This document shows, in pieces, positions 6,801 through 47,981 of a stretch of 64,000 bases of DNA. Position numbers and translations under genes: made by a program. The stretch covers positions 2,900,265 through 2,964,264 of the forward strand of contig CM082597.2 of NCBI GenBank assembly GCA_040954595.2, written 5' to 3'. Below the pieces are notes generated by a model. The model made no database searches and was not told the DNA's origin. It saw only the letters and a program-made list of their open reading frames with translations. Position 1 is the stretch's first letter. Each line of letters begins with the position of its first letter. The DNA comes from Balanoglossus misakiensis (taxonomy: Eukaryota > Animalia > Hemichordata).

Positions 6801-9800
6801 GTTTCCTTCTAACACAGGAGATTCCTTGTCTGATATTAATGATGTGCTGTTTGGAGGAACTGAAATAACAATGTCAAATATACCTTATAAATCTAAAATT
6901 TAGAGACACACTTTTAATTTTGTGCTTTTAGCTCAGATAAGAGTTCAATGATAAGTTTGGAATGATACATTGCTTACTTGTCATAATAGTTTTGTAAAAT
7001 TGTTAAAAATTACCAGCTGTTACTTGGAAAAATTATTTGACTCGATGGCAACATATAAAGGCAAAACTACAAATCAAACAGCAAGATCATTGTCTGGAAA
7101 TGAATTTGTTTGTCATCAATTTTTTACTGATAAAACAACTATTACTATTATTAGGTACAGAGGTTGGCCTTGGACTTCCACGTTGCCTTGACCTAAAATC
7201 AAAACATCTAAGAAGGGCATGCCCCATAGGCTGCTAGGTAAAAGGTCACACCATCATAGCAAAAACCATGGTGATGCTATGGAGATTGCTGTCATATTTG
7301 AACATTGAGTGAAGTGTTCACGAAAATGTTGGTTTTGTCTTCATTATTTTTCTCTAGTTGAGTGGAATAACTGAGGTGTCAATGGAAAATAACCATGACT
7401 TTGGGTATTGTGATTATAAGGCATGTTTTGCCTAGGTAAAACAAAAATTGTTAATTTTACACACTTGCCTATGCAATTTTGTTACATTTTACATAAAACA
7501 ATTTCTGAATGCATATTGAAATCTGAAAAAGAAAAAACAACAACTGCAACACAGGGTATTGCTGTAAACATATGGCATTTTAGTTGAAATAGGCCAATAA
7601 GTTAACCAGACTTTGTTGACTAATTTTTGGATGAACTTTGACCTACTTTTGCATGTGATATCTCCTTGATATCTTTGTGTGAGCTTTGATTTTCTTTTGC
7701 CAATCTTACTTAAGATGGATCAGTATAGATGGGACCAAAATTTCCTTTCTGAAGTGGTTACATTTGAACTTTCATATTTATACTAGAAGGCAGTTCTTTT
7801 TAATTATTCAGGTTTGCAAATGATGAGCCATTATACCTCACATATATTCCATGTAAACAGTGTAAGTGCCTTAGACACTGATGTAAACCGGTAGAATATT
7901 TCATTGAAGCCGCCAACACATTTATTTTAAATATATTATATTACATAAAAAAGTCGTACGGAACGTGTTTTAAATTAGCCTTAAGTTTCAAGGCGCCCCA
8001 CTAACTGTGTACAGGTATGCGCTGTTATGCGGATGGTTTCAAGACACCCGCACTCCAACGCACGTACACAAAAAAAAGATGGCTGCTCACTGTTTCGGCT
8101 GAGCGGTTTACGATCGATTCTATCGGCATTTTGAATGCCAAGTAACATACAACACAAGAACTAACGGAAATGTAAGATGTATAATAATAAGGTTATTACA
8201 AAAATTCCGCAAAGTATGCACGAGGACATTAGCGCAGCGATACTGGGCGCTAATGTCCTCGTGCATACTTTGCGGAATTTTCGTGATAACCTCATATTTC
8301 ATAAAGGACACTTATAAAGATTGAGACATGCTAAGCTTTTACATGTAATATTGTATTTACTGCATATGCTACATTTCAGCGATGATGGTTATTGCAGTAT
8401 AGTACTCACAATGTACTTCAATCTGTTGCGTTGAAGAATTAACTGGGCGTTGAAATGGCAATGATGTCGACTGGCACTGAAATACCGCAGCATTATGAGA
8501 AGCATGAAGTGTAATTGTTAACTCCTGTGTTGTTATTTTGCCACCATGGTTTCCATCTGTTTCTTCGGGTGTCTTTAGGTTTTCCTGAGGGTTGTCTATA
8601 ATTTCAGTTTCATTTTTGAACCATTTGACTTCAGATGGAGGGTTACTGCTTTCACTTGTACATGTCATGGTCAGGTTGGTTCCAATTTTCTGTGCTACCG
8701 TGTATCCACTAATGAAAACTGTAGATGGTTGAACTAGAACAATTTGTTCATAAATTTATTAAACTATGAAAGGAAAATGTACACGTTGACCATAACAACT
8801 GTTATGAAACCTAAATTGTTTGTCTGATAATTCTTTATCTGCTTTGTTATAAAGAAATTGTGATAAGATGTTCATATAATTCATAATTTTTGTATAAATT
8901 GTTATCTGTTGAAGTTCTGTAAACATGAATGTATTATCATTAAAACTCCAAAAACAACAAACAAAAGAAATAAAAACTTACAGTACACAGTAAGCTTTAT
9001 TTCCTCAGAGTCAGATGTTCCTGGGAAATTTGCATTTTTTGCTTTGCATTGAAATGTTGCATTGTTGTGATTTGGTTGCAAGGATGATATTGTGAGCTGT
9101 TGAGTAGTAGTAGTTCCGTTGTGTTTACCAGTTTGTGTTTGGGCAGTATTTGTTGTTTCATGGTTACCACCAAGCCATTCCCCGCCATTTTTTAACCAGG
9201 ATATTGTAGCTGCTGGATTACTGCTTGCTGTATCACATGTCAATACAAGTTCTTCATTTGCTTTCTTTACACCCGAAAAACCACTCAGTGATGTTGAAAC
9301 TGGTGGAACTAAAAAAACAGTAAGAAGTCAATTTCATATACACAATCCAATCTGCATGAATAGAAAACATTGGGAAAATCATGTTGGAACACCAAAGTCC
9401 TTTGAACAGATATGTATGGTGATTTAAAATAATGTTGCAATGAACTTCTACAGAAAATTGAACAGGTTTTCAGTTGCAAGGCACTTACACTATTTACACA
9501 AACAAGTTAGATGTAATCAGTCACCATTTAAAAATTCATACAGAATTTCCAACTTGACAAGAAAAATCCATTTACAGCACTTTGCTGATAAATATTTAAA
9601 TTGGAAAATAAAATGCACCTTTTCTTTTTTATACTAGCATTGTCAACTGGAGTGTGATTTAGACTCTTACCACATTGATTTATGAATTTCCTTTTCATTA
9701 TTTTAGGGCTGAATTTGAGAAAACATTTCTCCGTGTGCGTATTAAAATCCATAGAGTATTTTACAGACTCAGTGGTTCATTTCAAGGTCAACTGCTTGGC

Positions 9801-12800
9801 TTGATATACGCATGCAATAAGGAGAATACTGTCTCAACTCAGGCTTTTTGCAAGTCTAGTCCAGAAATATGCATTAAAATCTAGTTTAAAAGTTCAATTG
9901 GATTGTTTTTCAACAAAACTACGACTGCAGTTTCTTATGGATGAGTTTCATTATTAAATTTTCACTGTATATGTCAATATTTTAAATTTAGATTTAACGA
10001 GTTCTATAGTATTGCACTGAGACTGACCCAGTAAAGATTGCATTTGATGACCTGATCATGCAAGCAATGTGGCAACTACAGGGGTTTTGTATGGATTCTC
10101 CATGTTAAACTGTTGTTCATTTCTATTAATTCTCCTTTGTCTGACACCAAGAACAAAACCGCAAACCGGCAAAAAACATGTGAAATTCTTCTGGTATGTG
10201 GTAGTACCCATCAAGGAAGTACTTCTTGCATCCAGAGCAAACAGTGAATATGTACCGGTACATTGCAGCCTTGTGGTCACTCCAGCCTGCAGCATGCCCC
10301 CTTGCAACTCTTACAATGGGAAAGCCTATCGCCTGTCTATTACCCAAGTAATTTCCTTAAATCATGTGAAAATTTTAATAATCCATCTAATACTATTTCA
10401 CATATGAAATGGCATGTACAAAATTTTAAAAAAAAAGTTACTAACAAAGACACAACAGGATAGTCCAATTAATTCGTTACGATGTCTTCAAAATAAGGAA
10501 ATAATGGAGGACACTGTACTTACATGTACTCATAAACTCCACGACAATGATAATCAAACATTTCATCATCTGCACAAGACTGGACATTTACACATTGACA
10601 AAAAAACAAAGCTTGCAACTTAAAGGCACGTAAGCTGCAACTGAATAAAAAATTTAAGTTTTAAATAATCTCATATATGCTTTTAATTATGTCTATTAAA
10701 TGCTATTTCATGATAATATATCAAGCTCAACACTTATTTATGACAAAATGGCCAAAAATTAAAGAAAAACGAAAATTCCTGCAATTTTAAAAAAAGTGCA
10801 ATATTGCGATGAAAAATGAAAATATGATGTCTCAGTGGTGTACATTTACTTCCATGAGCTCAAGTGGATGAGATCATGTTTTGTTTATGAAGTTTCATAA
10901 CCGGAAATGCAACATTTTCATTGTTTCTTGCATTTTCCCACGGTGGCGGCCATAATCGCTTGCGGCAAAGCTTTATTATTTATCTGGTTAAAACTTGCAT
11001 ATGCACTCATATTTAGGGTTTATAATGCTTGTGTATAGTTCACTGCCTTCATCTGCATGGACTAATGGTAGTGCAGTTTGAAACAAAAATTATGAAAATT
11101 ATCCCAAAAGTTACAGCTTACGTGCCTTTAAGGCGAAATAGCTGCCCTGGTTGATGCACATATTTCGAGATATGTTACCAGTCAAAGTTTGATAAATATA
11201 AATATCCTTTCACTCGAAATATATAGTCGTAGCCTAGGGTTCCAGTCTCATTAAAACTGGATCAAATAGAAATAATGCCAAATTCATCACAAAATTTTGC
11301 AGTGCAGTACGTGCCATTATAAGCTGCAGCAAAATATGGAAACAAAGATCATGCTGGTATTACAACACATGACTGTAATGTCAGGCTCAAGTCTTCTCGC
11401 ATTCACACTTGCCAACTGTTACATTTCTCCAAGGATGTGTACGGTGTATGACTAATGTTATGATAATATTACAACTGTATATATATATATATATTAGCAT
11501 GTATACTGTAAAAAAATAATTATATTATATCATGCTACCGTCTGCCATTCTGATTGGACGAGAGCTCAATCCAGCGATGCTAAAATACTCAATATAGCAC
11601 TGCTAAAACGGGCCCCTGAACTAGCATATGCGGCAGCAAAATGTGCGGTTAAACCACAGTCGCATGTATTTAAACCAAATGAATAAAATAAAAATACTGT
11701 TGAATTAACGGACGTTTTATTTTTGAACTTCTCTGTGGGAATATTTGGTATTTTGCCATGCATGATGCCTGTCTTGTCAATTTTGTCGTCTGCTTCATGT
11801 TTAATGCTCGATCCCAGCCGCTCCTTAATACAACCACACCCAACCACAAATAATGTAAATATCAATACTTACAGCTTACAATGAAAACTCCTAGCTGACA
11901 TGATGGTGGTGATGAAGCTGTCGCCATATTTGAAGCATAGCATTTATATGATGCCTGATTGTCTTTCCTTTCTAGAGTCCATTCAAAATTATTTGTTACT
12001 GTATTCCCGTTGTCTGGAGGTGCTGTCTCACTCACATTTTCATCAGTGTTATCATTAAACCATTGTAAAGTAGGCAGAGGATAGCCGCTGTCTGTCTGGC
12101 ATGTTATTGACATGTCTGAACCAAGCAGGTAGTTTGCTTTGACTGGAGCTACCTGGATACAAGTTGGCACATCAGGGGGGTCTGTCAAGAGAAAATTCTG
12201 ATATAGTCATTGTCAATTTAAGTAATAAAATGGACAGGCATATCACAAGAATTTGAAAAGCCCACAATATAAACACACAAGCATGAGCAAGTGCATCCAG
12301 TAAGGATATTGCATTTACTCTCATCATATCGTACGTATCAGCATAGGCATCACATCTCTGGAATGATCGAATCTTTTAGGAACATGTGATGTCGCATTAC
12401 ATTGGCATATGCATCACATCTGGCATCAGTTACTGTGATCGCATCGTATCACCAATCCATTTGCTAGTGATCCATCTATGAACACTTGTGCATTTGAAAG
12501 TTATGGTCGACACAAGGCTATTGTAGTCACCTTTACAATTATGTAAAATCTAGTTAACTGTTTGTGTAACTAAAACCAACAGAAGAACTGTATTAAAATA
12601 TAAAAGACTTTGAAACATTGTCAAAACTTTATAAATACATATAAGACATGTTTTGAAAGCATTTAAAATGACTCAATCAACATGAGTTAATATGCCCAGA
12701 TCAAGGAAATAAAAAAGGATGTAATAATAACCTCATAAACTAAGAAAAAATTTAACTGCAAAATTTAGTCGCCCAAACAGGTGCTTCATTCTACAATAAA

Positions 12801-15800
12801 GCAAGAACAATTTTGAATTATTGGGCAATTCAACAAAACATGCTACTCATGAATTTGCAGGTGAGAGAGGAAATTAAAACATCACACAATGTAATGCCAT
12901 TAACTGTCAGTTCTCTGTTAATACTTGACCTAATAAAAGTTCAAAGCTACTCATGGTGACGTCCATTGCTATATTCACCGTGGTGGTAGTACTACACTGT
13001 TATCTCACAAAATTTGAATGAATCCATGATTTTTTTATCATTTGCTTCTTGTAGCTCATGACACCTGCCAAAAAAAGCATTTAAATGTAGGAACAAGTAT
13101 TTTTCTGCAACAAGTGCAGAATTGAACTTTGTACTCATGAACTAATTTCTGCATGATAATCATATTAACCTTGGTTTCCTGCCCTCCTCCCTCACTCTAG
13201 GTAACACTTTGAGCTGAGCCTATTGTTTGTAAGTGTTGTTTTCTATAGAGTCACTTAGTCTGTTTTCCAATAGTGGGTTCCACTTTATCGAAATATGACT
13301 GTAGATGTGACATTTTATAGAAATCATTTATATAAATCTTATATGTTAATTTACTCACAGTAAATATCAAGTGTGATAGTGGTGGACACAGAATCCATGA
13401 AATTTGTCGCTGTGCAGGTCAAGTCTGTTCCACTGTCATTTCTGTAAGCTTTGTCGATAGTCAACACTGTATAATCGTCATTCAGGTAATATCTTGGGAA
13501 CAGATGCAATGGTTGGTTGTTCTTCTTCCAGGAGTAGCTAGGTGGTGGCCCACCATCAGAATGGCAACTTAATTCGGCTATTTGACCTTCAATGGATACA
13601 ACATCTCCCAATATTCTGGGTGTTGATGGGGCTACTGCTTCTGTAAGTTGAACACAATATGCCATTTATAGATATTTAAAAGATTGGATGAAACTAACAT
13701 TACAAAATATCTTATTAGCGGGGCAATTAAACTATTTTAGAAGGATGTTTCAATTGAGTGATTTGCCAGTAGATCTATATTGTATTATAAATGTTACTGA
13801 GGATGTAAATGTGCACGGTTCAAATCCCATTAGATGACCCTATCTTCATTCTGCAGGCATTCATCTAGCAAGTTAAAAAACAGGGCTTGACATACATTTT
13901 TTCCTTGGTAGTCCAATTGGGCTACCATTTTGAAATTGGTCCCCAGGGATTATGTCTGTAATTAGCCCATTGTATGTATTGAATGAATGATGTTTGTTTA
14001 TGAAGCAGATCATAATAAAAGCCATTTTTTGTGAATCATCAGTGCCTGTGAAGTAAAGTTTCCAGTCATTTGACATAAATACCTGCAATCTTAGTCTGAG
14101 GAAAGTGGTAATGAGTATACGGTAGCACCCAACAGTTTGTCGACATATGTACTTATGACTTGAGGTTTATATGTAAATTTATATGTAAATTTTGCAAGTT
14201 GCTGTGACTTTAAATGCTGTAATTTAGTAATTTGAAACTTTGTTGCATAATAAAGCTGCACTGTGGTCTTTTTAATTTGCATGTTAAAGGTGATAATGGA
14301 GCTTTTGTCCAGTTAGAGACCATCCATATCAGTGTGTCATCAGAGCGACAAAGATGGATCAGACATCACAGAATTTGAGGCCACTTAGGGCTAACAATTT
14401 TCGATCCCCGTATATATAGCCATATGGATTGTGACAATTTCTATAAATTTTCATGTTTGTGGTCAGAATGTCACAGACAACTATATTCAGAATAATATTT
14501 TATGAAAATAAAATACCTTTCATCACACACTTGGAAGGGTAAACTGCTGCTGATGGTTCTGATGATTGCCAATATATTATTTATTGGTCTTTTGAGAACT
14601 GACCCGTTCACCCAGTGATCAGTTAAATCAATGGTGAATTGCCCAGTGTATTGCCAGTTATATGTGCAGGGGCTCGTCGCCTTGTCTGGAACTTTGAGCG
14701 AGTATGGATGTAGTTCTGCGTGAAGGTGTGGATGGAAGAGAGTGCATGTTGTAGAAGTACTGTGAAAGTGTGGGCTCGCTATCCTGTTATAGGCCTAAAT
14801 ACTACCCTGTACCTAGGTAGACAGAGATCATGTTTTCTTTGAACAAAATAAAATAATCCGTGTTTAGCAATAAAGTTGTGATCACTTAAGATGGGGCACC
14901 CTTATACTTTTGCTGTTACTAGCCCCTGGTCTGATATTCATGGTGGTTTTGTTCAAAACTGAGTGTACAGTTTCATACAGGCACATAGCAACCAGCAAAA
15001 AATTATGGGTGCCCCATCTTAAGAAGGTAATAATAATGATGGAACTCCAGGACCTCTGACTGGAATCTCTGAGATTCAAAATGACTGAAACTTGCCATTT
15101 TAAGAGGCTTTCGATAGGGACTATTTTATCTCTATTTCATATATCACCTGTGAAGAATACCACGGGCAACAACAAGGTAATCAGCAGTACATATGCAATA
15201 ATACAATTGTACTAAATAACATTAAAATTGATAAGGAAAAGTTACTGAGATTGAGAAAAGAGGAAATAAAAGATGCTAAAAGTGGCCCTTTTATTGATTA
15301 TACAAGTTAAGGTAGAATGTCTAATTTTCTACTTAAAACTGGTTTACTGGAAGTATAAGAGTTGGGTTTCTCTTTTAGAACAATGTAATTTAGGTGTCAA
15401 GGTACATACAGAAATACATACATCCATGCAACGTCAGTATTTGCCACTTTTTATTGTTCTCGCAGTAAAGATATTAGCCGGTATTTTCACCGAGTGAAAA
15501 TATGGAATATTATTATACACCTACTGCTGTAACCTATGGAGTTCTGTAATTCAATAATTGGCAGTATCAGCATACAATAATTATTCAAATGAGGACGCGG
15601 AGTCCCATAACACCAGGGTTATTGAACGCATTTTGACTTTGACCTCACAGGTGTTCAATGTAAACAATGATGATATTAAACCCTACTCTGACAAACATTT
15701 ATATAAAAAAGTACACAGTTGTTATTAATCTAAACTACTGGTGACCCTAGATGCGAAATAAGTCAAAATCTGCGATGAAATTTCAGTCGAAGGAATATGT

Positions 15801-18521
15801 GAACGAACAGGTGAGCATGTACATTTCAAGTTCCAGAACGAGCTCAGCACTAGCAGCGTAAAACGTGGCGTGCAAGACATCGGCAGCTCGACACTAGCAT
15901 CACCTGATGCGCAAGGTCCAGGCGCATTCGATATGCAAATTACTTCATGGCGGTGTCTGAAAACTAGTCCGATAGCGGCCAATTTATTCTTTATCGTTCA
16001 TCAAGGACGTCGGGAAAAGGTGTATAATAATTAGGTTATTCACATAATAACGGGATTTATGTCCTCGTACATTGTACGCTTCAGTATTGTCCTCGACGCT
16101 GCGCGTCTCAGACAATACCTGCGCTGTACGATGTACATTTGTACTTGGACATAAATCCCGGTATTTTGTGAATAACCTTATATCATTATACATCTGGCAA
16201 GGAGAACAATAGAATTTAGTGTGCATTATAAAAGTCGTACGGAACGGTACGTACGGAACGCGTGTTAAATACGCCTTGAGTTTCAAGACGCCCTAACTCA
16301 CTGTGTACAGGTATGCGCTGTTATGCGGACGGTTTCAAGACACCCCCAGTCCAACGCACGTAAACAAAAAAGAAAGATGGCTGCTCACTGAGTCAACTGA
16401 GCGGTTTTTGATCGATTGTATCAGCATTTTGGGTGTTTTGAAAGCCAAGTAACATGCAACACAAGAACTAGCGGAGATGTAAGATGTATAATAAAAATTA
16501 GCGCAGCGCATCACCCTCCGCTACGCGTCGGGCGATGCGCTGCGCTAAATGTCCTCGTGCATACTTTGCGGTATTTTCATAATAACCTCATAATAATTTC
16601 ACCGTGCGCCAGAGCATATGGTGTTGTGGTGAACTAAGTTCTCGGCGCATTTTCGCAAATCGTACTGTTTTATAAGTATCCATCGATAACGCGTCATATT
16701 CGAGTGATTTGTCCCTATTTTAAAGCGAATACGAAACGTTATCGACCAAACTTCGTGTAACAACCCCTAAATATAGATAAAGGACATACATATACATCCA
16801 TTCACTCATGCCTATGTAACATGCATACCAATGTTCACACGTGTGCGCGCTCATACACACACAGACACAAACAAATCGGCACGACATTAGCTTAGTAATA
16901 CGTGTGTGTAAATATGGGAGGTAAAAATTACTGCCATACAAAAACCCGAAATCAATGGTTTCTCCTCTTAAAAACAGACAGATTAAATACATATCGTCCT
17001 TGCTATACTCGCATATAGGGTAGCATGGAGCATAAAAAAATTCAACATGAATACCAACTACACAGAAGAGGGTTTGCTTTGCAAGTTTAAATTGTTTGCT
17101 GTCAAACCATATTACCATTGTAAAATGTCATGGATCTATTATGTGATAATATAAATAAACTCACGTTTAACATCCAAAGATAAAGACTCACTAAATACGA
17201 CTGCCAATTCTGTTACTGCACACCAGTAGATACCTCTGTCCGCCACTTCAACATTATTTATGCGAAGGGAGAATTTGTTTACAATGTTATGTCGTGTAAA
17301 TGACGCATTTGTGTGTATATTGCCAAGTAGGTCCCGAAGTATTATTGATACAGAACTGCCGATATTTGGTCCGAAGTACCAACCAGGTGTTGGATTATTG
17401 AACCCTGAATAGTCACAGTACATAATCGCAGTTTCCTGCTCATAAACGGACACGTCATCACCAACTATTACCAATCTCTCGGCCCCTGAAAATGAAATGA
17501 GGTACACATATCAAATCGACTTAAGGATGTACGATCTGTAAAAATAAATATATTGTCATTTCTTTTAATTATGGATTTTTGGTGTTTTCCTTTGTAAGCA
17601 TTATCTTAACCTAATAAAAGAAAGGGGGCACCACGCTTGTTTTGAAATACAAGGAAGTAAATTTTGGCGATAATTGAAGAAACTGCCGAGTCGAGTCAGC
17701 ATTTTTCGCCACTGGTTTGTCAGGGCAAAACATTGAACGAAGTTTATCTCAAAATAGTGCGCGGTGAACATACAATTTTGTCTGATCAATGAATTTATAT
17801 TTACTTGACTGAGCTATGTGTAAAATTTCATTAACATGACAATAGAAGCAATTTGTTTTCTAGCAATCTCAATGTAATCCAAAGGGGAGAGAGACACATG
17901 CGCACATACTTAAAGGTTAAAAGACAAGAAACCAGACATCGTTGGTCGATTTTTCAAAATTTACTGAACAGCTTCTTTGAATATGGTCATATAAACGTTC
18001 TCTGTGAAAATTACAAAATTGATACCTAGGTTTCTGTAAACCATTACAAACGCAATATGGCACTTTGACGCATTTGATAGTATTATGCAATTCATTTGCA
18101 TTACGTTTGTGGGATACACAAGTCAACACATATCGTGTTTGTCTACTCGTTCTTTAAAAGCAGTCCTTTTAATCTCTGGTTGTCAAATTAATAGATGTGT
18201 GAGTTGTTTGTTAACAGTCATTTTTGTTCTAAAAAACACAAAAAATGACTAAATAATCCTCTCTTGGATATGTACGCTTTACGTCTACCATTTCTCTCCA
18301 CCTTCGAGATTTAGAAACCAATGGCAAGGTTTAGGCACAATACCAAGAGCGTTATAATAGTAATTGCTAAATGCTGTTATTATGACCCATCCTGTGTTAT
18401 AAAATGTATGTTCCCAATAGTCATCGTAAAAGTTTCCCAAGGCTTACTCACCTATAGTCTGGTATCTAGTAAGAGTAACCAAAGTCCATACAATCCAATA
18501 TGAGCAAACTGAATTAGCCAT
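814..18521 (-). CDS. Gene A: nephrin-like type I IgSF receptor (signal peptide, V-set, 6 further Ig, FN3, TM, ~270-aa Tyr/Pro/Lys-rich tail ending in two ITIMs); proximal-cassette isoform
   Basis: In-frame GT-AG exon chain read by hand: leader 18452-18521 (MANSVCSYWIVWTLVTLTRYQTI); V 17165-17485; Ig 13359-13640, 11873-12181, 8982-9308, 8410-8733, 6533-6859; I-set 5685-5987; FN3 4902-5186 (WVPGFDGG...LLPKTNYSV); micro-exon 4656-4676; TM 4061-4189; cytoplasmic 3545-3566, 2975-3087, 2347-2463, 2073-2156, 1416-1690, 814-999 (LTYADL...VAYAMV, stop). Ig C...W...C motifs are in the ORF track. Confidence 0.88.
3168..3338. mobile_element. TA-flanked MITE
   Basis: tactgtaaaatggaaaattttcacga ... tcgcgaaatttgcccgttttacagta imperfect TIRs. 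Confidence 0.7.
8190..8292. mobile_element. Palindromic MITE of a dispersed family (relatives near 16033-16178, 16500-16590, 20280-20370, 45345-45410, 28455-28480)
   Basis: aggttattacaaaaattccgcaaagtatgcacgaggacattagcgc..gcgctaatgtcctcgtgcatactttgcggaattttcgtgataacct is a near-perfect hairpin; the flank 7940-8190 also recurs at 16220-16500. Confidence 0.7.
10620..11131. mobile_element. Non-autonomous DNA transposon with TTAA target sites (Kolobok-like termini AGG...CCT)
   Basis: ttaa-aggcacgtaagctgcaact ... agttacagcttacgtgcct-ttaa: 19-bp TIR with one mismatch, flanked by TTAA. Confidence 0.8.
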
Positions 18522-19774
18522 TCCGCCTTGATTGACTGACAAAATTCATTCAGCCTTGAGCTTTAATTCTTGCACATCGCAACCCAAATAGTTTAACCAT
18601 CAACTCAGATCGCAATGCGCAGATGGGTCAGATCGGTGGCGCCCTTTAAACGGGCTGAACCGGCTATCTGTACATGCGTATTACAACTAGTCAGCAAGAT
18701 AAACCTTGTGGCACGTATTTATGATTGTATTAGTGGTTTAAACTTGCAAAGTGTTAACGGATAACATTCTCGTACAGTTATCGGCATGTCTTCCCACAGG
18801 TAAGTGCAAGATGAGATAGATTGTACCGTGTCAAACAACAAATACTTGCAACTATGTGGAGTGTGATTGTTGCGGTTGCCACTGCTAAACTAATTGTATA
18901 TAGGCTTGAAGAAAAAAACAGAGTATTCACAGACTTTTCCAATTACTCACAATTTTTTGTTTTGTTTGTTGACCAGCGGCACTTATGATTATATGGTTTC
19001 AGAAATAATAAAAATGATCATTTGTTCCGGAGGAACTGCATGTCTCATTGCATCACCATGCAATATAACTGCTTGCAGGATGTCAATACTAAAGAGAAAT
19101 CGCGGGAACGAACGGTTTATAAAAACATTCTGACCGAGGAATATTTCCCATAACAACCGTCTACGAGGCAATAATACATTCTGCTTGGTCTGTCCCAAGT
19201 CTCTGGATCGATTGTATCCACTTGGTATAAGGACTGTACTGTGGAACACATATGAACGTTAGTTCAGGCTGTGGTATGCCTGAAATGGCCGTGATTTTAT
19301 TACGGGTATTGCATTATTGGGCCATTATTTGGAACAATGAAAATGTACCTGTACGTATCAGTGTCCATTTTTGTGATGACCTGGCAGCCAATGTTTTTTT
19401 TTTCATGCATGGAAGTTCTTCTGACACGTTTCAACTGATTGTATTACAACTCCATACAAGAAAAGAGTAAGGCCAAAAAAGTAGATGGTTTCCCATCCCC
19501 GCGCGCGTCAATTTAGATTAACCCCGCACCAACCTCGTGTTTGGCATCTCAGGGGAAAATGGAAAAGGTGCACCAGTCCGTAGACAGGCGTCCTATAAAT
19601 AGCATCATAGCCTAGTAACATTCAGCACGCTGGTCGCAACACCTATCTAAACTTGAAAAAAGATGTAGCAACATTTGTTAGAGGTCATGCCATGTGTCCG
19701 CGCGTGTGCAGAATACTTGCTCATGGCAGATATCGATGTTCAGAGGCAATTAGAGATGTCAAAAAGTAGCAAAA
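16050..19774. repeat. Tandem segmental duplication copy 1 (intron, V exon, leader, promoter of gene A)
   Basis: Direct match to 19839-23324; ORF-track translations recur identically at a 3550-bp offset (e.g. 18321 vs 21871, 19252 vs 22802). Confidence 0.93.
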
Positions 19775-20472
19775 AAAGGCAGGCGTCTTTTTTATTTTGT
19801 TTTCAGTAGCAAAACATTAATTTCTCAATTCTATCAGGACGGGATTTATGTCCTCGTACATCGTACACTTCAGTATTGTCCTCGACGCTGCCCGTCTCAG
19901 ACAATACCTGCGCTGTACGATGTACTTGGACATAAATCCCGGTATTTTGTGAATAACCTTATATCATTATACATCTGGCACGGAGAACAATAGAATTTAG
20001 TGTGCATTATAAAAGTCGTACGGAACGGTACGTACGGAACGCGTGTTAAATACGCCTTGAGTTTCAAGGCGCTCCAACTCACTGTGTACAGGTATGCGCT
20101 GTTATGCGGACGGTTTCAAGACACCCCCACTCCAACACACGTAAACAAAAAAGAAAGATGGCTGCTCACTGAGTGAACTGAGCGGTTTTTGATCAATTGT
20201 ATCAGCATTTTGGGCGTTTTGAAAGCCAAGTAACATGCAACACAAGAACTAGCGGAGATGTAAGATGTATAATAAAAATTAGCGCAGCGCATCACCCTCC
20301 GCTACGCGTCGGGCGATGTGCTGCGCTAAATGTCCTCGTGCATACTTTGCGGTATTTTCGTAATAACCTCATAATAATTTCACCGCGCGCCAGAGCATAT
20401 GGTGTTGTGGTGAACTAAGTTCTCGGCGCATTTTCGCAAATCGTACTGTTTTATAAGTATCCATGTATGATA

Positions 20473-20580
20473 AAGGGGTTGTTACACTTAGTTTGGTCGA
20501 TAACGCGTCATATTCGAGTGATTTGTCCGTATTTTAATCGAATACGAAACGTTATCGACCAACTTCGTGTAACAACCCCT
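20473..20580. mobile_element. Small MITE-like hairpin, intact in duplication copy 2, left arm mostly missing in copy 1
   Basis: aggggttgttacacttagtttggtcgataacg ... cgttatcgaccaacttcgtgtaacaacccct. Confidence 0.55.
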
Positions 20581-20971
20581 AAATATAGATAAAGGACATA
20601 CATATACATCCATTCACTCATGCCTATGTAACATGCATACCAATGTTCACACGTGTGCGCGCTCATACACACACAGACACAAACAAATCGGCACGACATT
20701 AGCTTAGTAATACGTGTGTGTAAATACGGGAGGTAAAAATTACTGCCATACAAAAACCCGAAATCAACGGTTTCTCCTCTTAAAAACAGACGGATTAAAT
20801 ACATATCGTCGTTGCCATACTCACGTATAGCATGGAGCATAAAAAAATTCAACATGAATACCAACTACACAGAAGAGGATTTTCTTTGCAAGTTTAAATT
20901 GTTTGCTGTCAAACCATATTACCATTGTAAAATGTCATGGATCTAATATGTGATAATATAAATAAACTTAC

Positions 20972-22071
20972 GTTTAACATCCAAAGATAAAGACTCACTA
21001 ATTGCGATTGCCATTTCTGTTACTGCACACCAGTAGATACCTCTGTCAGCCACTTCAACATTATTTATGCGAAGGGAGAATTGGTTTACAATGTCATGTC
21101 GTGTAAATGACGCATTTGTGTGTTTATCACCACTTAGGTCCTGAATTATTATTGTTACTGCATTGCCAGTATTTAGTCCTAAGAACCAACCGGGTTGTGG
21201 ATTACTGAACCCTGAATAGTTACAGTACAAAATCACAGTTTCCTGTTCATAAACGGACACGTCATCACCAACTATTACCAATCTCTCGGCCCCTGAAAAT
21301 GAAATGAGGTACACATATCAAATCGACTTAAGGATGTGCGATCTGTAAAAATAAAAATATTGTCATTTCTTTTAATTATGGATTTTTGGTGTTTTCCTTT
21401 GTAAGCATTATCTTAATCTAATAAAAGAAAGGGGGCACCACGCTTGTTTTGAAATACAAGGAAGTAAATTTTGGTGATAATTGAAGAAACTGCCGAGTCG
21501 AGTCAGCATTTTTCGCCACTGGTTTGTCAGGGCAAAACATTGAACGAAGTTTATCTCAAAATAGTGCGCGGTGAACATACAATTTTGTCTGATCAATGAA
21601 TTTATATTTACTTGACTGAGCTATGTGTAAAATTTCATAAAATATGACAATAGAAGCAATTTTTTTTCTAGCAATCTCAATGTAATCCAAAGGGGAGAGA
21701 GTTTAACAAACAACTCACACATCTATTAATTTGTCAAATTAATAGATGTGCGAGTTGTTTGTTAACAGTCATTTTTGTTCTAAAAAACACAAAAATGACT
21801 AAATAATCCTCTCTTATGTACATACGCTTTACGTCTACCATTTCTCTCCACCTTCGAGATTTAGAAACCAATGGCAAGGTTTAGGCACAATACCAAGAGC
21901 GTTATAATAGTAATTGCTAAATGCTGTTATTATGACCCATCCTGTGTTATAAAATGTATGTTCCCAATAGTCATCGTAAAAGTTTCCCAAGGCTTACTCA
22001 CCTATAGTCTGGTATCTAGTAAGAGTAACCAAAGTCCATACAATCCAATATGAGCAAACTGAATTAGCCAT
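20972..22071 (-). CDS. Second (distal) leader + V-set cassette of gene A; probable alternative first exons
   Basis: Leader 22002-22071 is identical to 18452-18521. V exon 20972-21292 is open, 321 nt, phase 1-1, with intact ttcag acceptor and gtaagt donor. No constant Ig exons of its own lie between it and the proximal cassette. Confidence 0.75.
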
Positions 22072-23993
22072 TCCGCCTTGATTGACTGACAAAATTCATT
22101 CAGCCTTGAGCTTTAATTCTTGCACATCGCAACCCAAATAGTTTAACCATCAACTCAGATCGCAATGCGCAGATGGGTCAGATCGGTGGCGCCCTTTAAA
22201 CGGGCTGAACCGGCTATCTGTACATGCGTATTACAACTAGTCAGCAAGATAAACCTTGTGGCACGTATTTATGATTGTATTAGTGGTTTAAACTTGCAAA
22301 GTGTTAACGGATAACATTCTCGTACAGTTATCGGCATGTCTTCCCACAGGTAAGTGCAAGATGAGATAGATTGTACCGTGTCAAACAACAAATACTTGCA
22401 ACTATGTGGAGTGTGATTGTTGCGGTTGCCACTGCTAAACTAATTGTATATAGGCTTGAAGAAAAAAACAGAGTATTCACAGACTTTTCCAATTACTCAC
22501 AATTTTTTGTTTTGTTTGTTGACCAGCGGCACTTATGATTATATGGTTTCAGAAATAATAAAAATGATCATTTGTTCCGGAGGAACTGCATGTCTCATTG
22601 CATCACCATGCAATATAACTGCTTGCAGGATGTCAATACTAAAGAGAAATCGCGGGAACGAACGGTTTATAAAAACATTCTGACCGAGGAATATTTCCCA
22701 TAACAACCGTCTACGAGGCAATAATACATTCTGCTTGGTCTGTCCCAAGTCTCTGGATCGATTGTATCCACTTGGTATAAGGACTGTACTGTGGAACACA
22801 TATGAACGTTAGTTCAGGCTGTGGTATGCCTGAAATGGCCGTGATTTTATTACGGGTATTGCATTATTGGGCCATTATTTGGAACAATGAAAATGTACCT
22901 GTACGTATCAGTGTCCATTTTTGTGATGACCTGGCAGCCAATGTTTTTTTTTTCATGCATGGAAGTTCTTCTGACACGTTTCAACTGATTGTATTACAAC
23001 TCCATACAAGAAAAGAGTAAGGCCAAAAAAGTAGATGGTTTCCCATCCCCGCGCGCGTCAATTTAGATTAACCCCGCACCAACCTCGTGTTTGGCATCTC
23101 AGGGGAAAATGGAAAAGGTGCACCAGTCCGTAGACAGGCGTCCTATAAATAGCATCATAGCCTAGTAACATTCAGCACGCTGGTCGCAACACCTATCTAA
23201 ACTTGAAAAAAGATGTAGCAACATTTGTTAGAGGTCATGCCATGTGTCCGCGCGTGTGCAGAATACTTGCTCATGGCAGATATCGATGTTCAGAGGCAAT
23301 TAGAGATGTCAAAAAGTAGCAAAATGATTTGTTGAAACTATAGAAAAACAATATGAATGTAACAGTAATAGTAATATGCACAATTTCGTTGCGTGAACCA
23401 TCCTGGAAAATGGCATTTGTACCACAAAAACTGGAGTTTTGAATTGCTGTAGGTGTACGAATCCTGTAACTAGGCATGCGCAGTGTACAGTTCTGAAAGG
23501 CACACCACGTATTGTGATCCATCATGTTTATTTCCGTACTATGATGACTGAGGCCTTTTGGTCTAGTGGATGTAAATGCCTAGCGTTCTTTGACAGAAGT
23601 GTATCAAGACAAGAGGAGTGTTGTCCACTGGTGATCGATTTATCCTACCGAATGATTGCTAACAGTGCTGTGCATTTATCTCTGCATGCATTCCTATATT
23701 CTCATGTTGTTTGCGCGTTGTGTTGATGGTTTAAGCAAAAAAAAGCAAAAACAAAAAAAAACACAAAAAAACGTGTGACCGTATCATTTTTGCAAGATGC
23801 CTAGGATGAGCAACAAACGTTTTTCTGGCATTAGCTGCGGTGGGAGTTCTAAATCGAGAAGGTTTACCTATAGAGGGCGCCTTCCCGAAATGGATCGGAT
23901 GAAACTACCAAAGCATCGAGACTTAACACTTAACCAGTGACTTAACAACATAAAGCTACACACCCCTACTAGAAAATGGTATGAATTCTTGAC

Positions 23994-24029: not shown

Positions 24030-24540
24030 AGTAGCTCATACTCAATTTGATAGACTCCTCCGTTTACACTTCGGAGCCAAAAAACTAACGTGTAACCAAT
24101 GTGAATATTGTAGAGTATCCGTTTGCATCTGATAACTGAAAATGCAGGTCACATTAATACTGCCAGATTAACGGTTAGGGACTGTAGACAATAAGATTCC
24201 CACATATCTACAAATATCTAAACTGCTTTCTGGTTTAGGGGTTAAGAACATTAGCCTTCCTGAAAAAAACAATGTTAATTCTGCTCTCAGCTACTGTTTA
24301 GATGTAGAGACAGGCGGTAAACAACGGGATGCGAACAGCAGAGACCAAGAAAAGGCAATGGCACAAGGGTATCCGTCGTCGTTACAATATTACGTGGAAG
24401 CATCCTACTTGCATGTCTGTGGTGATTACATAATATTTATAATACAATATAGTAAATCTACCACTAAAAAATAATGACAAAATCTTGTATCCATGTTTTC
24501 CTTTTCTTCTCTTCTTTAATGCAGATATCAAAGGTATTAT

Positions 24541-27500
24541 ATGGATATATTAGGAATGTACTTCAAATTGAGTATTTTCGTGTTCTTCTTTGTAACTACA
24601 ACCAGGCCTGTTAAATCTGGTAAGTATTGACTGTCACAACTGCACTTATGCCGTTCTATGGTCACTACGCCGTACTCAATCAGTTATAGCGTCCTCGTCT
24701 TCATTTCGTTTTTTTTATTTATTACCCGATTAATTAGCGAGCTAAACTCACCAAAAACTAATAAGTTCCTATCCTTCACAAATAGAAGCTGTATACCATG
24801 CGCAATAGTCAGTAAAGCAAATACGCAACAGCTTCGCGGTCTGCTGCACGACCAGACTGATGTGACAATGAGACAAACAAACAGACAGACATCAGGCGAC
24901 AATCACACGCGCGGGAACACGTTGAATTGTTTAAATATCTTTGTGAAAGTGAAAAACATATTAAGCCATTCACACTTAAACACTGTAAAGAAGTTTGCAA
25001 ATATTGTCATCTAACTGTTCTTATTTTGATTATTTTTATGTTTTAGCATGTGACGTCAACGTCAACATCGAAGAACCAACAGTTAACGCAATCGAAAAAG
25101 ACAATGTTACATTGAGGTGCACTTATCAACTTGATAAGAGTACTTGTACTCAGGTAGAATTTTCTTGGGCAAATGCTGCTGGTGACGTCATTGCATACAA
25201 GCTTAATGAACTCGCCCCCACTTATTACGATGATTTTGGACGTTTTCGACTGGTGGAAAGTGGTTTAGATCTCCACATTGAGAGCGTTGAGGTTGGGGAT
25301 AATGACACATACACATGTTCTTTTGCGATCATATTCGGTGCACCTGATTCTGGTTCTGTTCAGCTAAATGTTCAAGGTATGTGTGCAATTTTATCTTCAA
25401 CACAGCTTAGAATAAATTGATCTGATTAAAAAGTTGAGATAAACATGTTGCAAGATCTGTTCACCTAATCATCATCATTACTCCGTCGAAATATATAAAG
25501 TGAACAACATCAGGTTTATAAATGTCCAACGAAGTACACAATACTGACTTACAGTACATTATCATTGAATAGGATTTGACAGATATATGCTCAAATTTCA
25601 AACACCAATGTCTTCGACATACATATACTAATATTTTACCTATGCTTACGTTAGCTGATCAACACAACATAGATCTGTATAGTCAGCATTGTTATTGTGC
25701 CAAATTTTATTTCAAGTCCAGACTAGAATTCATTTGTCAACAAAAACAATGGCAGTTACACATACAGGCTATGTCTGCCAAAATTTACCTTGGTCAAATG
25801 TCTGTCATGTTCATTCCTGTATAAAACACCTTCGGCAGACACAATTGGGGATGGTGTGATGTTTATGGTATAGTACGCATATACATTATCTATTGTCTGA
25901 TTCTTGTTTGTGCAACTTGTTTTGTGTTTAGCTATTCAGGCCACAACAACTCCGCTATTTATTGTATTCGAAAATCCAGTACCACTAAGAAGCAATGCAT
26001 CATTCAATTGCACATCGACGGGAATTCCGGATCCCGAATATAGATATTTAAAGGACGGGATTGAAATTCATGGGAACGACAAATATTTCTTCAGCGAAGA
26101 CAGAACGCAATTTACCATTTCATCGATTGAGATTGGTGACAAGGGAAGGTATACGTGCGTTGCAGACAATACCGCCAATCAGCCGTCATCTTCATTTATA
26201 GATCTTGAAATAGTTTCCGAACGTAAGTATTAAGACTTCATTTCAGAGTTAACTTAAACACACTTACATATTCATATTTATCATTCAACACCACCTGATG
26301 ATAACAATGGACGTTGAATATTGATACGTGTGAGCTATAAGTTCAGGGATAGTAATCATTCAAACACAGACACATTTAAAATTAACTGAATATGGGTTTT
26401 ACTGTGTAACACAGGGAGCTGTTACAAGTTGTAATACATGTATAATAACTATAATTAATCACTTTTATTTCAGGCATATTTAAAAAAAAAATCTGTCCAG
26501 AGGGAAAAAACATAAAAACACGGGGGAATAAAAAAGAAAACCCAGAAAGAAAATATGCACAACTCCAAAACTGCAGAATAAAGAAATAATACAAAGAGAA
26601 AAAAGAAATTAACATGATCTAAAAGACACAAAACTCTAAAAATACGAGATTGCAAACCAAAACACTGAGCGTCAGACATCAGTAAGATCTTGAAAAGACT
26701 ATTATTATGTCCGGAAGACATTCTTCCAATTTTGTCATTGTGCAGATTTAGTGTAATTATCATGGTTACTAATTCGACTTATTAATAAAATTGACAAATT
26801 AAACCATTAACACATTAAACACGTAGTATAAAATATTATAAATTCACACAAAAATGTTCTCGTAAGACTGAGGCTAGTAAATTGAATTTGATTTCTTTGC
26901 TAAACAACGCACGAATCTGCATCCACCTTTTATTGCCTACATAAGTATATAATATATATTCACGTATACATAGTTTGATCAAGACTGAAAAATGTGCTTA
27001 TCAATCAATAAATTATCACTGAATTCAGCTTTCTTGCAATGCATCGGATTCATGTTATCCTGTCCCATCTTTATGAAATCACTATTTGTAGTAGGTTCCA
27101 TGAGATTTGTTCAATAATTCCAGATTTATAGCAGTTATTGTTTCACCAATGTTAATGTGCTGGTTTTCGCTGATAAATTCAAGTTTATTGATTATTCATG
27201 AAAATAAATGTGGTAATTCTTATATTTGGATGTGGTTCTCCGTAATATATTTCTATAAGCCCAAAAGCTTATTACACCGTGCGTAATGATTGGTTGATAC
27301 TCTGTGACATGTTATAGAATAAAAAGTACTCAATCATTTGCTTGTATGGTTACATTTTCAGTGCAAGTGAATAGTCTGACGACCGGGGAGAAAGTCGCAA
27401 TAGGTGTGTCCGCTTTTATAGTTGCAATAATTATAGCTGTCATAATAATATTCGTGTACAAATATGTTAAGGTAAGTTTACTTGGCTCACAGTCACTCCA

Positions 27501-36139: not shown

Positions 36140-36790
36140 AATATTTCAATTCAATTCAATTTATTTTCACTTTCAATTTTTACATTGAATGGTGAAAAAT
36201 GTACTGATAAAGTGAAAAAAGCAGGTAGGAAAAATAGCACTAGTCAAGTCCACCCCAGCCCCCCCCCCCCCCCATGGTGAACAGTAGAACACTTGGTTAG
36301 TAATACATACAAAAGAAAAAAAAAGTCAAACTATACTTTTTCCTAACAAGGATTTCATTTGTTTCTTAAATGAACATTTTGACCTTGTTGAGCGCGTATT
36401 TTCAGGAAGTTTATTCCAAACCTTTGCTGCAGTGTACTTTATGGAATGTTGGCCAGCATTACTGTTATATTTCGGAATAAAAAGATCGCCGATATCTTTT
36501 GATCTGGTATGATAAGAGTGTTGAATAGGAACGAAATACTCTGAGAATCCTGGTGGAAGCTTGCCATTGAGAGCATCATGAACAAACAAGGAAAGTTGAA
36601 GATCACGTTGCTTGTATACATTCAAGATATGTAACTCATTAAACAATGGTGAAGAGTGTGCAAGACGGTCTGATCCCGCCAATACATGTACAATTCTTTT
36701 CTGTGTGAGAAGTATTGGCCTCAAAAAAGATAAATAAGTATTTCCCCAAGTTTCTATAGCATAGGAAATGTGTGGAAGGATAAAACAGTA
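36140..36790 (-). mobile_element. 5'-truncated non-LTR retrotransposon (CR1/L2-group), C-terminal ORF2 fragment
   Basis: ORF 36326-36724 has QKRIV..HSSPLFNELHIL..HSYHTRS..WNKLP..SFKKQMK, typical post-RT motifs; a (ttcaa)n tail lies at ~36144-36160. Confidence 0.8.
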
Positions 36791-37604
36791 AATATAAATT
36801 CTGGAACTTGACTTTCATTAGATAAAATCTGTATACATATCAATGATGAACAGTGTAGCCAAAAATGACAAGATTTTTCCTCGAAATTTGCATAATACGC
36901 TTGTTAACATGAAGTTCACAATAGCTAAATGATTCTATGCAAAAACTGAGTAATGCACACTCAAATTTCGGGTCCATGTGGACAGAGCAAACTTTTCTTT
37001 CTTTTCTCACCCGCTAAATATATAAAAAAACTTATTAAAACCCATAAATCAAAAATCAAATTCCCCAACACGTCATACCGGTAAACATGATTCTGTGAAA
37101 TCAATGTCCAATCGACAGAAAATAAATCCTGCAATAACATCCCCTTGAGGCACTGCATGTAAATGTACTTTCAAACTTTCAAGTCTTGATTTATTTAAAA
37201 TAAAAATTACTCTTGAATATATGTTTACAAAACCATTAGTTCTAAATTTTATGTTTTGTATCAAATACCTATAAACGTATATCAATATGTATGTATAAAA
37301 TTAGAAAAATAGTGTAAATGTACTTATATCATTCGTCCCAATAGTTAAGACATGTTCGATACTACTTCAACGTAAATATTTTACGAGGAAGAACACCACT
37401 GCTTAATTTTCATCGTAGTTTCTAGAAATATTTAAAATTTCAAATACAAAAAAATATTTTGTAAACAATATAAAATAAGCAATCAAAATTGAATAGTTTG
37501 TCTGGTTACATTGCAATGCATTGTCATTAAGCAAGCATCTCTGCTATACTAAACTGTTCAGTGATTTGCTTGAATATATGGGCGTCCACAATATCAGCTG
37601 ACAT

Positions 37605-46600: not shown

Positions 46601-47863
46601 ACATCAAAGCTGCTGCCATAGATAGAGACGAATGTGATGCAGCAAATGGATCATAAAAAAGAAAACACCAAACACACAATTTTAACAAACGTTCTCAGTA
46701 GCTGGGAGGATAAAATACAAACTGTCGTTGTTCTAGAGCTTATTGCTGAAGAAAATTCTGATATTTCTTGGAAAAGCATCGTCTACACTTTGGCGGCCAG
46801 AGAAGTAGCAAAATAAAAAATTCCATACCAAGCTACCTACCCTATTTTTGAAAACCATGTAATCGGAAAAGCACACATTAATTGTTTCGGCCTAATGTTT
46901 CACTAGGAGGAGCACCTACTAATGCGAGAACCATGGATTGAAAGTTGTGCCTTCAAGCATCCGTTTAAATTACCTGATACATCCAAGAGTATGATGTCCT
47001 CATCTCTAGTAATACCTGGCCCGGAAATTTCACATATATAGGTTTCACTGTCTTCAACAACTGTTGACGTGATGTTCAGTGACGCCTGATCAACCAAGCT
47101 ATGGCGATCGTAGCCGTCGCTAAATACCGGGTCATGTCCATCTTCACGAATGACAATCACATTTGCAGAGTCAATCGAATTAAAATACCAAATCAATGTT
47201 TCTCTGGTTTCGGTGTATGTACACGGCAATAATGCGTCTTCGCCAACATAAACATACACGTCATCACCCGTTTGAACGTCTTCAACTCGAATAGGTTTCG
47301 ACAAACTGTCGACTGTCCCTGTGACAACATAATTGAGAGTTATAAGTTGCTACGTTCATAGACTTAATGTGTTTTTCATGAATATATTTTGTATTTTGCA
47401 TAAGAAGGTAAGTGCTTAGCCAAATATTAATTAAGCATTTGCTGATCAAATGATCATTTAATTGTAAATTCTTTAACAGAAAAATCAAATACAACGCCTC
47501 TTTTACCGTTTTCAGATTGCAACTGAAGACAACGCACAACATTACATACATGTACATAGGGTGTGTCAGTACCAATTGTGGCACAATGATACCATGTATG
47601 GGAAAGTTGATTTTCAGCTGCACAAGCAATATTGTCAGCCTTTGGTAACTGCGAACAACTCGTTGACTTCTGCTTTCTTTGGATGTAAATAAAAAGTGTT
47701 CAAATATTGCCTGCAACAGACATGCCACCATTTTCTCTGCTTTCAATATATCAACGTCCATAAAAGTTTACTTGCATTCACTCAAAACATATAATGGGTA
47801 TTGCAACGTGAGCTTACCAGATAAATGAACAGCAGAGATAATCGTCAAAGCGAAGAGGATCAT
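37605..47863 (-). CDS. Gene C: nephrin-like IgSF receptor, paralog of gene A (signal peptide, V-set, 6 Ig, FN3, Cys-containing stalk, TM, ~300-aa tail with ITIMs and terminal ITSM)
   Basis: Leader 47818-47863 ([15 protein letters not shown]); V 46974-47318; Ig 46154-46435, 45728-46045, 44923-45216, 44270-44590, 43581-43913; I-set 42282-42584; FN3 41587-41868; stalk 40560-40778; TM 40079-40210; cytoplasmic 39812-39830, 39461-39543, 39229-39342, 38746-39018, 38207-38430, 37605-37760 (LVYADL...TEYADI). Open frame with GT-AG sites. Confidence 0.88.
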
Positions 47864-47981
47864 GTCTTCAAAAGGTTTTAGGTTGATATGAATATGCACC
47901 CTCTGTAATACCATTTCACTCCTGTAGAAGAAGGTCATTATGAATATCTGGTGATGTCATTTTGTCCCATGATCCAAATCA
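45620..47981 (-). repeat. Inverted segmental repeat arm 1 (5' end of gene C)
   Basis: Reverse complement matches 54037-56452 across exons and introns; ORFs 46903-47304(-) vs 54778-55179(+) and 46634-46816(+) vs 55253-55435(-). Confidence 0.92.

Follow-up and report, generated by a model that had tools for sequence, protein, structure and literature searches.

Two tandem 5′ units with divergent V exons in a predicted immunoglobulin-type receptor gene of the acorn worm Balanoglossus misakiensis

Introduction

The window analysed here, a stretch of 64,000 nucleotides of contig CM082597.2 of the acorn worm Balanoglossus misakiensis, has a GC content of 33-42% and contains five receptor genes of the immunoglobulin (Ig) superfamily, designated A to E. 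The subject of this report is the 5′ end of gene A, which is located on the minus strand (22071 to 814) and is predicted to encode a cell-surface receptor of the Ig type. Two tandem units, each composed of upstream DNA, a leader exon, and a V exon, precede one shared constant region. The reading that is developed below, for and against which we consider the evidence to be evenly balanced, is that of a young 5′ duplication carrying two pre-existing V variants, with either V1 or V2 placed at the tip of the receptors of one gene. Published work is cited by its PubMed Central (PMC) number.

Organization of Gene A

Self-comparison by BLAST aligned 16050-17893 with 19839-21701 at 93.9% and 18180-19774 with 21731-23324 at 99.6%. 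This is in accordance with the initial annotation, which had described two tandem upstream-leader-V units and had considered the 64-bp junction between them unique; no other good match to the junction was found in the window (Table 1). The distal unit is arranged head-to-head with gene B (ATG at 24556, + strand). Both leader exons end with a GT donor in phase 1, and L2 is hydrophobic and, as judged by eye, signal-peptide-like. The V-set domains of the two V exons are recognized by Pfam with E values of 7e-11 and 2e-10; the 45 bases preceding the acceptor are identical in V1 and V2, and V2 has one additional N-glycosylation sequon at residue 24. Searching the window with a V profile brought up six V exons. 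Genes B to E account for one apiece and gene A for the remaining two; the array thus comprises just two members and, within the window, is no feature of the family as a whole.

The 3′ breakpoint of the duplication (16050/19839) is located inside a palindromic element, and the 5′ breakpoint within a stretch of high repeat depth. At 19796, the sense strand of the junction reads AATAAA once, a hexamer whose background in the window is 0.84 per kb. Copies of an intronic repeat family are found in the introns of genes A and C (7955-8296, 16250-16592, 20031-20373, and 45346-45603), and the very high contig depth of this family suggests genome-wide abundance.

Both units are followed by a single constant region with six more Ig domains, a fibronectin type III (FN3) domain, a transmembrane (TM) segment, and a tail with motifs of the immunoreceptor tyrosine-based inhibitory type (ITIMs), giving the order L-V-I-C2-C2-C2-C2-I-FN3-TM-tail. 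This gene model was built by hand from the DNA letters, with domains assigned by Pfam scan, and its tail exons are predictions. All ectodomain exons are of phase 1/1. As had been proposed, either V exon, ending in phase 1, can be joined in frame to the Ig2 exon at 13640, and a V2-V1 double-V splice is likewise in frame: the L1-V1-constant and L2-V2-constant frames are each open over 1,140 amino acids (1,151 with the alternative donor of one tail exon), and the L2-V2-V1-constant frame over 1,247 (1,258 with that donor). A splice from L2 to V1 would also be in frame. The predicted tail comprises 250 amino acids with nine tyrosine motifs, three of which fit the ITIM consensus [ILVS]xYxx[ILV] as given in PMC9546547. 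Thus, gene A is predicted to be an Ig receptor with inhibitory-type tyrosine motifs. A rearranging V(D)J receptor was considered and excluded; a heptamer-12/23-nonamer pattern of V(D)J-type recombination signals had 0 matches in the window, and each V exon by itself codes for the complete domain as far as strand G.

Table 1. Coordinates of the duplicated 5′ units and of the constant region of gene A in the window.
Feature	Position	Strand	Remark or basis
Distal unit	19839..23324	-	1,253 bp of upstream DNA, L2, intron, V2, 1.1 kb of the next intron
Proximal unit	16050..19774	-	same parts with L1 and V1; leader-V intron about 260 bp longer (17894-18179 region)
64-bp junction	19775..19838		unique in window; best other local score 28
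Tract letter-identical to 18273-19774 (1,502 bp)	21823..23324	-	upstream DNA, leader, start of intron 1; putative promoter
Leader exon L2	22002..22071	-	from ATG, 23 codons + 1 base, 70 nt
Leader exon L1	18452..18521	-	70 nt, identical to L2
V1 exon	17165..17485	-	V-set Ig domain, 321 nt, AG/GT, phase 1/1
V2 exon	20972..21292	-	V-set Ig domain, 321 nt, AG/GT, phase 1/1
Palindromic repeat element	16018..16195		71% self-inverted; self-comparison
Ig2, first constant exon	13359..13640	-	I-set Ig; Pfam and exon phases
Four C2-type Ig exons	12181-11873, 9308-8982, 8733-8410, 6859-6533	-	phase 1/1
Constant I-set Ig exon	5987-5685	-	phase 1/1
FN3 exon	5186-4902	-	
Stalk exon	4676-4656	-	21 bp
Transmembrane exon	4189-4061	-	
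Six predicted tail exons	3566-3545, 3087-3008 or 2975, 2463-2347, 2156-2112, 1690-1416, 999-814	-	hand-built model

Two Genomic Copies or an Assembly Artefact

Two haplotypes joined in tandem by the assembler could imitate such a duplication, and several features would be in line with this explanation: the intron divergence of about 2.4% looks haplotype-like, the perfect identity over 1.5 kb could stem from polishing, and both breakpoints are in repeats. The alternative was examined by contig depth. The sequence was found in a single sample with three sequencing runs, two of which contain 0.71 and 0.61 of the window's words. In run X1, three contigs of the flanks, matching the window at 5,416 of 5,416 letters, have depths of 32.8, 30.2, and 28.2. 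For five contigs inside the units, depths of 31.1, 29.6, 48.5, 54.7, and 38.4 were observed; from the 31-mer counts of the window, a tandem duplication predicts 30.4, 30.4, 51.1, 59.5, and 38.8, while joined haplotypes predict 15.2, 15.2, 25.5, 29.8, and 19.4. The first two of these contigs are private to the proximal copy, the V2 bin has a depth of 29.4, and the fourth contig represents the identical tract. Copy-specific sequence is therefore present at full and not at half flank depth, and the shared tract at 1.8 times flank depth. Run X2, although noisier, agrees in tendency, with depths of 75-137 for the flank contigs and of 125-195 for the shared tract. With a divergence of 2.4%, a depth of about 44 instead of 54.7 would be expected for the identical tract, which argues against the 1.5-kb identity being a product of polishing.

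Further evidence comes from the letters of the contigs. In the flank contigs (12001-15497 and 24052-25705), neither a second haplotype at 88% likeness nor mosaic letters were found, which means that the flank region is homozygous in this animal or that the other haplotype is absent or strongly different there. Inside the units, one contig has mosaic letters of both copies, with four V2 letters in 17021-17275. Contigs bridging the junction were sought at 98% likeness; those of run X1 leave 19621-19880 uncovered, a contig gap that proves nothing in itself, and run X2 contributes only pieces of repeat depth (19661-19720). The hole in the contigs includes about 150 bp common to both copies.

By dosage, two copies are present on one chromosome. 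Since the contig depths fit two genomic copies, an assembly artefact is regarded as very improbable; for it to hold, the two flanks of the other haplotype would have to be missing or less than 88% alike. The preference of the initial annotation for a real duplication over a haplotype artefact is thereby borne out.

Divergence between the Copies and the V Domains

The difference between the two copies is distributed unevenly. The upstream DNA differs at 0 of 1,251 positions and the leader at 0 of 73, the leader-V intron at 15 of 706, plus one large indel, the V exon at 31 of 322 (9.6%), and the downstream intron at 28 of 1,100. Intron divergence thus amounts to 2.1-2.5%, with the V exon standing clearly above it (p=1.4e-8); at the intron rate, zero differences over 1,502 bp would have a probability of p=2e-16.

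At the protein level, 23 of 106 residues are different between V1 and V2. Both retain C23, W35, Y86, and C88, and no change is found in strand F or among the core residues. A model of V1 was obtained with a predicted local distance difference test (pLDDT) score of 86.8 from a 22-sequence alignment, single-sequence folding having given 33.5. Compared by fold, it comes closest to V-set domains of CD47/SIRP, P0, MOG, and TIGIT entries, while the sequence matches in the PDB, 23 in number with a best E value of 2e-5, are weak and generic. On this model, 17 of 50 residues on the C-C′-C′′-F-G side are substituted versus 6 of 56 elsewhere (p=0.005). Two other tests, on a hand-drawn hypervariable set (17/30 vs 6/76, p=2e-7) and on a 28-residue window (p=0.0024), were chosen after the data had been seen and are not relied on. 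In domain 1 of Hydractinia Alr2, specificity-changing and positively selected sites have been described on the same side (PMC8282982). Of the two-specificity receptor that had been suggested for gene A, there stand the differences between the V domains and their enrichment on the front sheet, and, judged from the model, different binding by V1 and V2 is plausible.

Promoters, Splicing, and Expected Products

The initial annotation had assigned a promoter to each unit. A stretch of 1,253 bp ahead of the ATG is indeed duplicated, but as a promoter it is putative. Neither a consensus TATA box nor a GC box is found in this DNA, and its observed/expected CpG ratio of 0.83, compared with 0.72 for the window, is uninformative. 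None of seven window matches to a CTCF consensus, which may not suit this animal (two mismatches allowed, chance mean 3.5), falls into the units. In the sister pair C/D, which is likewise arranged head-to-head, the ATGs (47863 and 48052) are only about 190 bp apart; promoters in this family are therefore probably located near the leader, and one is probably contained in the copied 1.25 kb.

Transcription from the proximal start would yield L-V1-constant, with V1 at the tip. A distal start would place V2 at the tip, with V1 either skipped or kept, leading to L-V2-constant and/or L-V2-V1-constant. Since V1 has the same acceptor as V2 and a normal donor, since the V1-V2 spacing (3.5 kb) equals that between V1 and Ig2, and since no sequence feature singles V1 out for skipping, the double-V product is expected to be at least as likely as the V2-to-Ig2 splice. 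The identity of the upstream DNA and the lack of a CTCF-consensus match likewise suggest that the two units are probably co-regulated and co-expressed rather than chosen between. By cap analysis of gene expression (CAGE), the two start sites cannot be told apart, since the units show no letter difference in upstream DNA or leader and the mRNA from an L2-to-V1 splice would exactly equal that of L1-V1.

There might also be only one productive route, an explanation that is rated as somewhat unlikely. The distal unit would then be a dead end, a gene-conversion donor, or the source of a short secreted V2 ending near the junction. Otherwise, the true start would be located upstream of 23324 near gene B, with a promoterless proximal unit and V1 as an internal exon, so that one promoter would serve a double-V product or an either/or exon pair. 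Read-through from V2 meets a stop after eight further codons and would yield a secreted single V domain, and an AATAAA is present in the junction; this hexamer is common, however, with six occurrences between the V2 donor and Ig2 and nine elsewhere within gene A. V2 contains neither stop nor frameshift and has kept its core residues, which speaks against a dead end. At a distance of 14 bases ahead of the L1 ATG there is a weak acceptor-like site, which would keep the frame after V2 and which leaves room for an upstream non-coding exon, and only half of the 2.5 kb between genes A and B is duplicated; on the other hand, the ATG spacing of genes C and D suggests a promoter inside the copied DNA. 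The in-frame splice from L2 to V1 would equally agree with a single route, as would the situation in Hydractinia, where partial duplicates upstream of Alr2 swap exons with Alr2 (PMC9546547, PMC8282982).

Comparison with Clustered Protocadherins and sDscam

In vertebrate clustered protocadherins, each variable unit is one large first exon coding for the whole ectodomain, with a CTCF element at its promoter. Gene A shares with them that several 5′ variable units feed one constant region. It differs in being of the Ig and not of the cadherin type, in that the tip domain alone varies and not the whole ectodomain, and in that the leader (70 nt) and the V domain (321 nt) of a unit are on separate exons, the V exon having an acceptor of its own. 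Cadherin repeats were absent from 35 frames scanned against Pfam, in which only Ig, FN3, and kinase families were found.

Similarity is greater to the sDscam-alpha genes of chelicerates, where a repeated 5′ cassette composed of a leader and one Ig exon precedes a shared constant region and where symmetric exon phases permit cross-cassette and multi-Ig splices; multi-cassette isoforms with extra Ig domains have been reported (PMC4835542). In contrast, gene A has two cassettes instead of 40 or more, identical upstream DNA, and an ITIM-motif tail. Its ectodomain matches three Dscams with 21-23% identity and 82-102 bits, which is the generic Ig level, and V1 alone does so with E values of 0.095-1.5. 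Members of the sDscam family are characterized by homology to Ig7/Ig8 and the constant region of Dscam, by a separate transcription start for every cassette, by splicing of the cap-proximal cassette to the first constant exon, and by homophilic binding that is isoform-specific. As far as its sequence tells, gene A is an sDscam-alpha-like two-cassette layout and not a member of the sDscam family. Of the protocadherin/sDscam-like architecture that had been claimed, the cassette layout holds, whereas homology to Dscam or cadherin is lacking, the cassettes number only two, and their upstream DNA is identical.

Working promoter choice of the sDscam-alpha type, with one unit used per cell and the cap-proximal V spliced to Ig2 while V1 is skipped, would be compatible with this cassette anatomy. 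Only two cassettes are also found in M. martensii sDscam-beta6; the origin of sDscam has been modelled as a segmental duplication at the 5′ end that copied exons 1-2 together with their promoter; and of 264 sDscam junctions detected, 249 join adjacent exons of one and the same cassette, although internal acceptors are present (PMC4835542). Against such a choice stand the identical upstream regions, offering no sequence basis for differential use, and the absence of CTCF-consensus matches from the units. Furthermore, gene A has only two V exons and each of its four neighbours one, and the zero upstream divergence argues against a long-maintained array. Promoter choice of this kind is consequently deemed unlikely.

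Proposed History

According to the reading preferred here, that of a young duplication with two pre-existing V variants, a duplication with both breakpoints in repeats would have made two identical units. Next, an exchange by crossover or conversion, beginning within the leader-V intron at the switch point 18272/21822, would have introduced a V exon with its flanking introns from a divergent haplotype. The net effect would be a fixed "heterozygote" at the variable binding domain. We infer a recent duplication followed by one exchange because this is the simplest path to the step from 0% to 2.4% divergence with a 9.6% peak in V; the outcome would look the same, and the fit would be equal, if the duplicate were older and its upstream part had undergone recent conversion. 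A comparable case is the heterogeneous ace-1 duplication of mosquitoes, by which two divergent versions on one chromosome would fix the heterozygote phenotype (PMC6121789). Gene A differs from it in that the duplication takes in no more than the 5′ end, with one constant region common to both units, and allelic origin and advantage are inferred.

Several points weigh against this history. The depth data derive from one sample, from which the assembly itself may have been made, and the depth of a contig does not amount to a formal copy number; in this sample, no single-copy allele of the unit was seen. Mean heterozygosity has been given as 0.5% for S. kowalevskii and 1.3% for P. flava (PMC4729200), and since the intron divergence of the two units exceeds these means, an allelic origin needs locally high polymorphism. 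The ratio of non-synonymous to synonymous changes between V1 and V2 (dN/dS) is 1.22 and not different from 1 (p=0.82), with 25 changes at 246.7 non-synonymous and 6 at 71.3 synonymous sites. Synonymous sites of V are also raised in comparison with the introns (p=0.009), so that the excess in V may reflect an older tract and not selection. The boundaries of the front sheet were drawn from the model after the differences had been seen. Finally, in the gene pair C/E the V exons diverge by 7.5%, intron 1 by 6.9%, and introns 2 and 3 by 1.9%; patchy divergence can thus arise in this cluster without being V-specific.

Relatives and Other Recognition Clusters

The best scores of the gene A ectodomain, with 253, 220, and 197 bits, are to acorn-worm proteins, followed by nephrins with at most 171 bits and the Dscams. 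These acorn-worm relatives share 30-38% identity over 350-725 aligned residues and have the same domain order; those of Saccoglossus kowalevskii include XP_077863486.1 and UniRef100_A0ABM0MW92. A profile search of the protein collections gave 150 matches, for 20 of which names were looked up; those with a single V match near the N-terminus proved to be proteins of S. kowalevskii and Glandiceps talaboti and one sea-urchin protein. In the databases, members of this acorn-worm V-I-C2 family bear generic names (CEACAM-like, hemicentin-like), and a kinase-tailed member resembles gene E. Word-index searches of protein collections did not retrieve a close relative (0/334 and 0/332 candidates); a further one gave 56/7,983, mostly generic hemicentin, nephrin, and Dscam proteins. 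The Saccoglossus models XP_077861925.1 (P0049), XP_006815347.1 (P0068), and the end of P0194 consist of leader plus V or of V alone, and could be draft-assembly fragments or stand-alone V cassettes.

Among better-known systems, Hydractinia Alr1/Alr2 have clustered receptors of the V-I-...-FN3-TM type with one domain per exon and tyrosine motifs; their tip V domain varies on the C-C′ side, and partial duplicates are located upstream (PMC9546547, PMC8282982). Unlike V1 and V2 of gene A, which have C23, W35, and C88, domain 1 of Alr is devoid of the core B-F cysteines (PMC9546547); moreover, gene A has four extra C2 domains, and the likeness noted here is one of architecture. The head-to-head encoding of Botryllus FF/FcoR (PMC12582321) recalls that of genes A/B and C/D. 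Botryllus FF/FcoR and the amphioxus VCBPs are, like the cluster described here, Ig clusters of invertebrate deuterostomes with copy-number and haplotype variation, while repeated 5′ cassettes find no mention in the accessible parts of PMC12582321 and PMC2632668. By analogy, the receptor type of gene A is closer to these invertebrate recognition clusters (Alr, FF/FcoR, and VCBP).

Neighbouring Genes in the Window

In the head-to-head pairs (22071/24556 and 47863/48052), the long tyrosine-tailed genes A and C face the short V-I(-Ig)-TM genes B and D. Gene C (37600-47863, minus strand) is paralogous to gene A, with tail exons in a similar pattern and with YAD motifs, two in number, at the C-terminus; between FN3 and TM it carries an additional exon, near 40550-40780. 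Genes C and E (45622-47981, minus strand, and 54037-56453, plus strand) share leader, V, I, and first C2 at 91% in inverted orientation, their V exons differing at 12 of 114 residues; this likeness represents other recent exchange in the cluster. The tail of gene C has tyrosine motifs including one of ITIM consensus, and gene E ends in a kinase domain, a combination that is a paired-receptor signature.

Active kinases carry HRD and DFG motifs. The kinase exon of gene E (61740-61862, plus strand) has HRS in place of HRD and is without DFG, so that it likely encodes a pseudokinase; the Saccoglossus relative P0153 is likewise degenerate at the kinase motifs. A short local repeat at 58828-59042 copies the acceptor and first codons of the last I-set exon of gene E and possibly provides a decoy acceptor about 120 bp upstream. 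A 162-codon open frame at 36326-36814 (minus strand) had no Pfam match and resembles, by eye, the tail of a long interspersed nuclear element (LINE).

Significance

The onset of 5′ cassette arrays is known only from models, the proposal for sDscam being a first segmental duplication of promoter and exons 1-2 (PMC4835542). Gene A has the anatomy of this model with upstream copies that are still identical, so that the alternatives of alternative tips, stacked tips, or a dead end can be asked directly. In the open literature, excluding subscription journals and supplements, no paper was found on the acorn-worm family or on 5′ V cassettes of invertebrate deuterostomes, and the family is not mentioned in the available parts of PMC8355894, PMC13428168, and PMC11175523. 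A more far-reaching proposal would be that the birth of a 5′ variable-cassette array is seen here at its two-cassette stage in an invertebrate deuterostome: an inhibitory receptor with two captured hypervariable-V alleles as alternative promoter-leader-V units, of an origin independent of sDscam and protocadherins, in an undescribed head-to-head Ig cluster resembling the Botryllus pairs. We regard this proposal, taken as a whole, as doubtful.

Summarizing, gene A is most likely a young copy-number variant with two divergent tips. If only one unit were productive, it would be no more than a commonplace copy-number variant of a rapidly changing cluster of immune type. It points to a family of V-domain receptors with ITIM and kinase tails in acorn worms, and the duplication of the tip would let one gene make receptors with two predicted binding tips.

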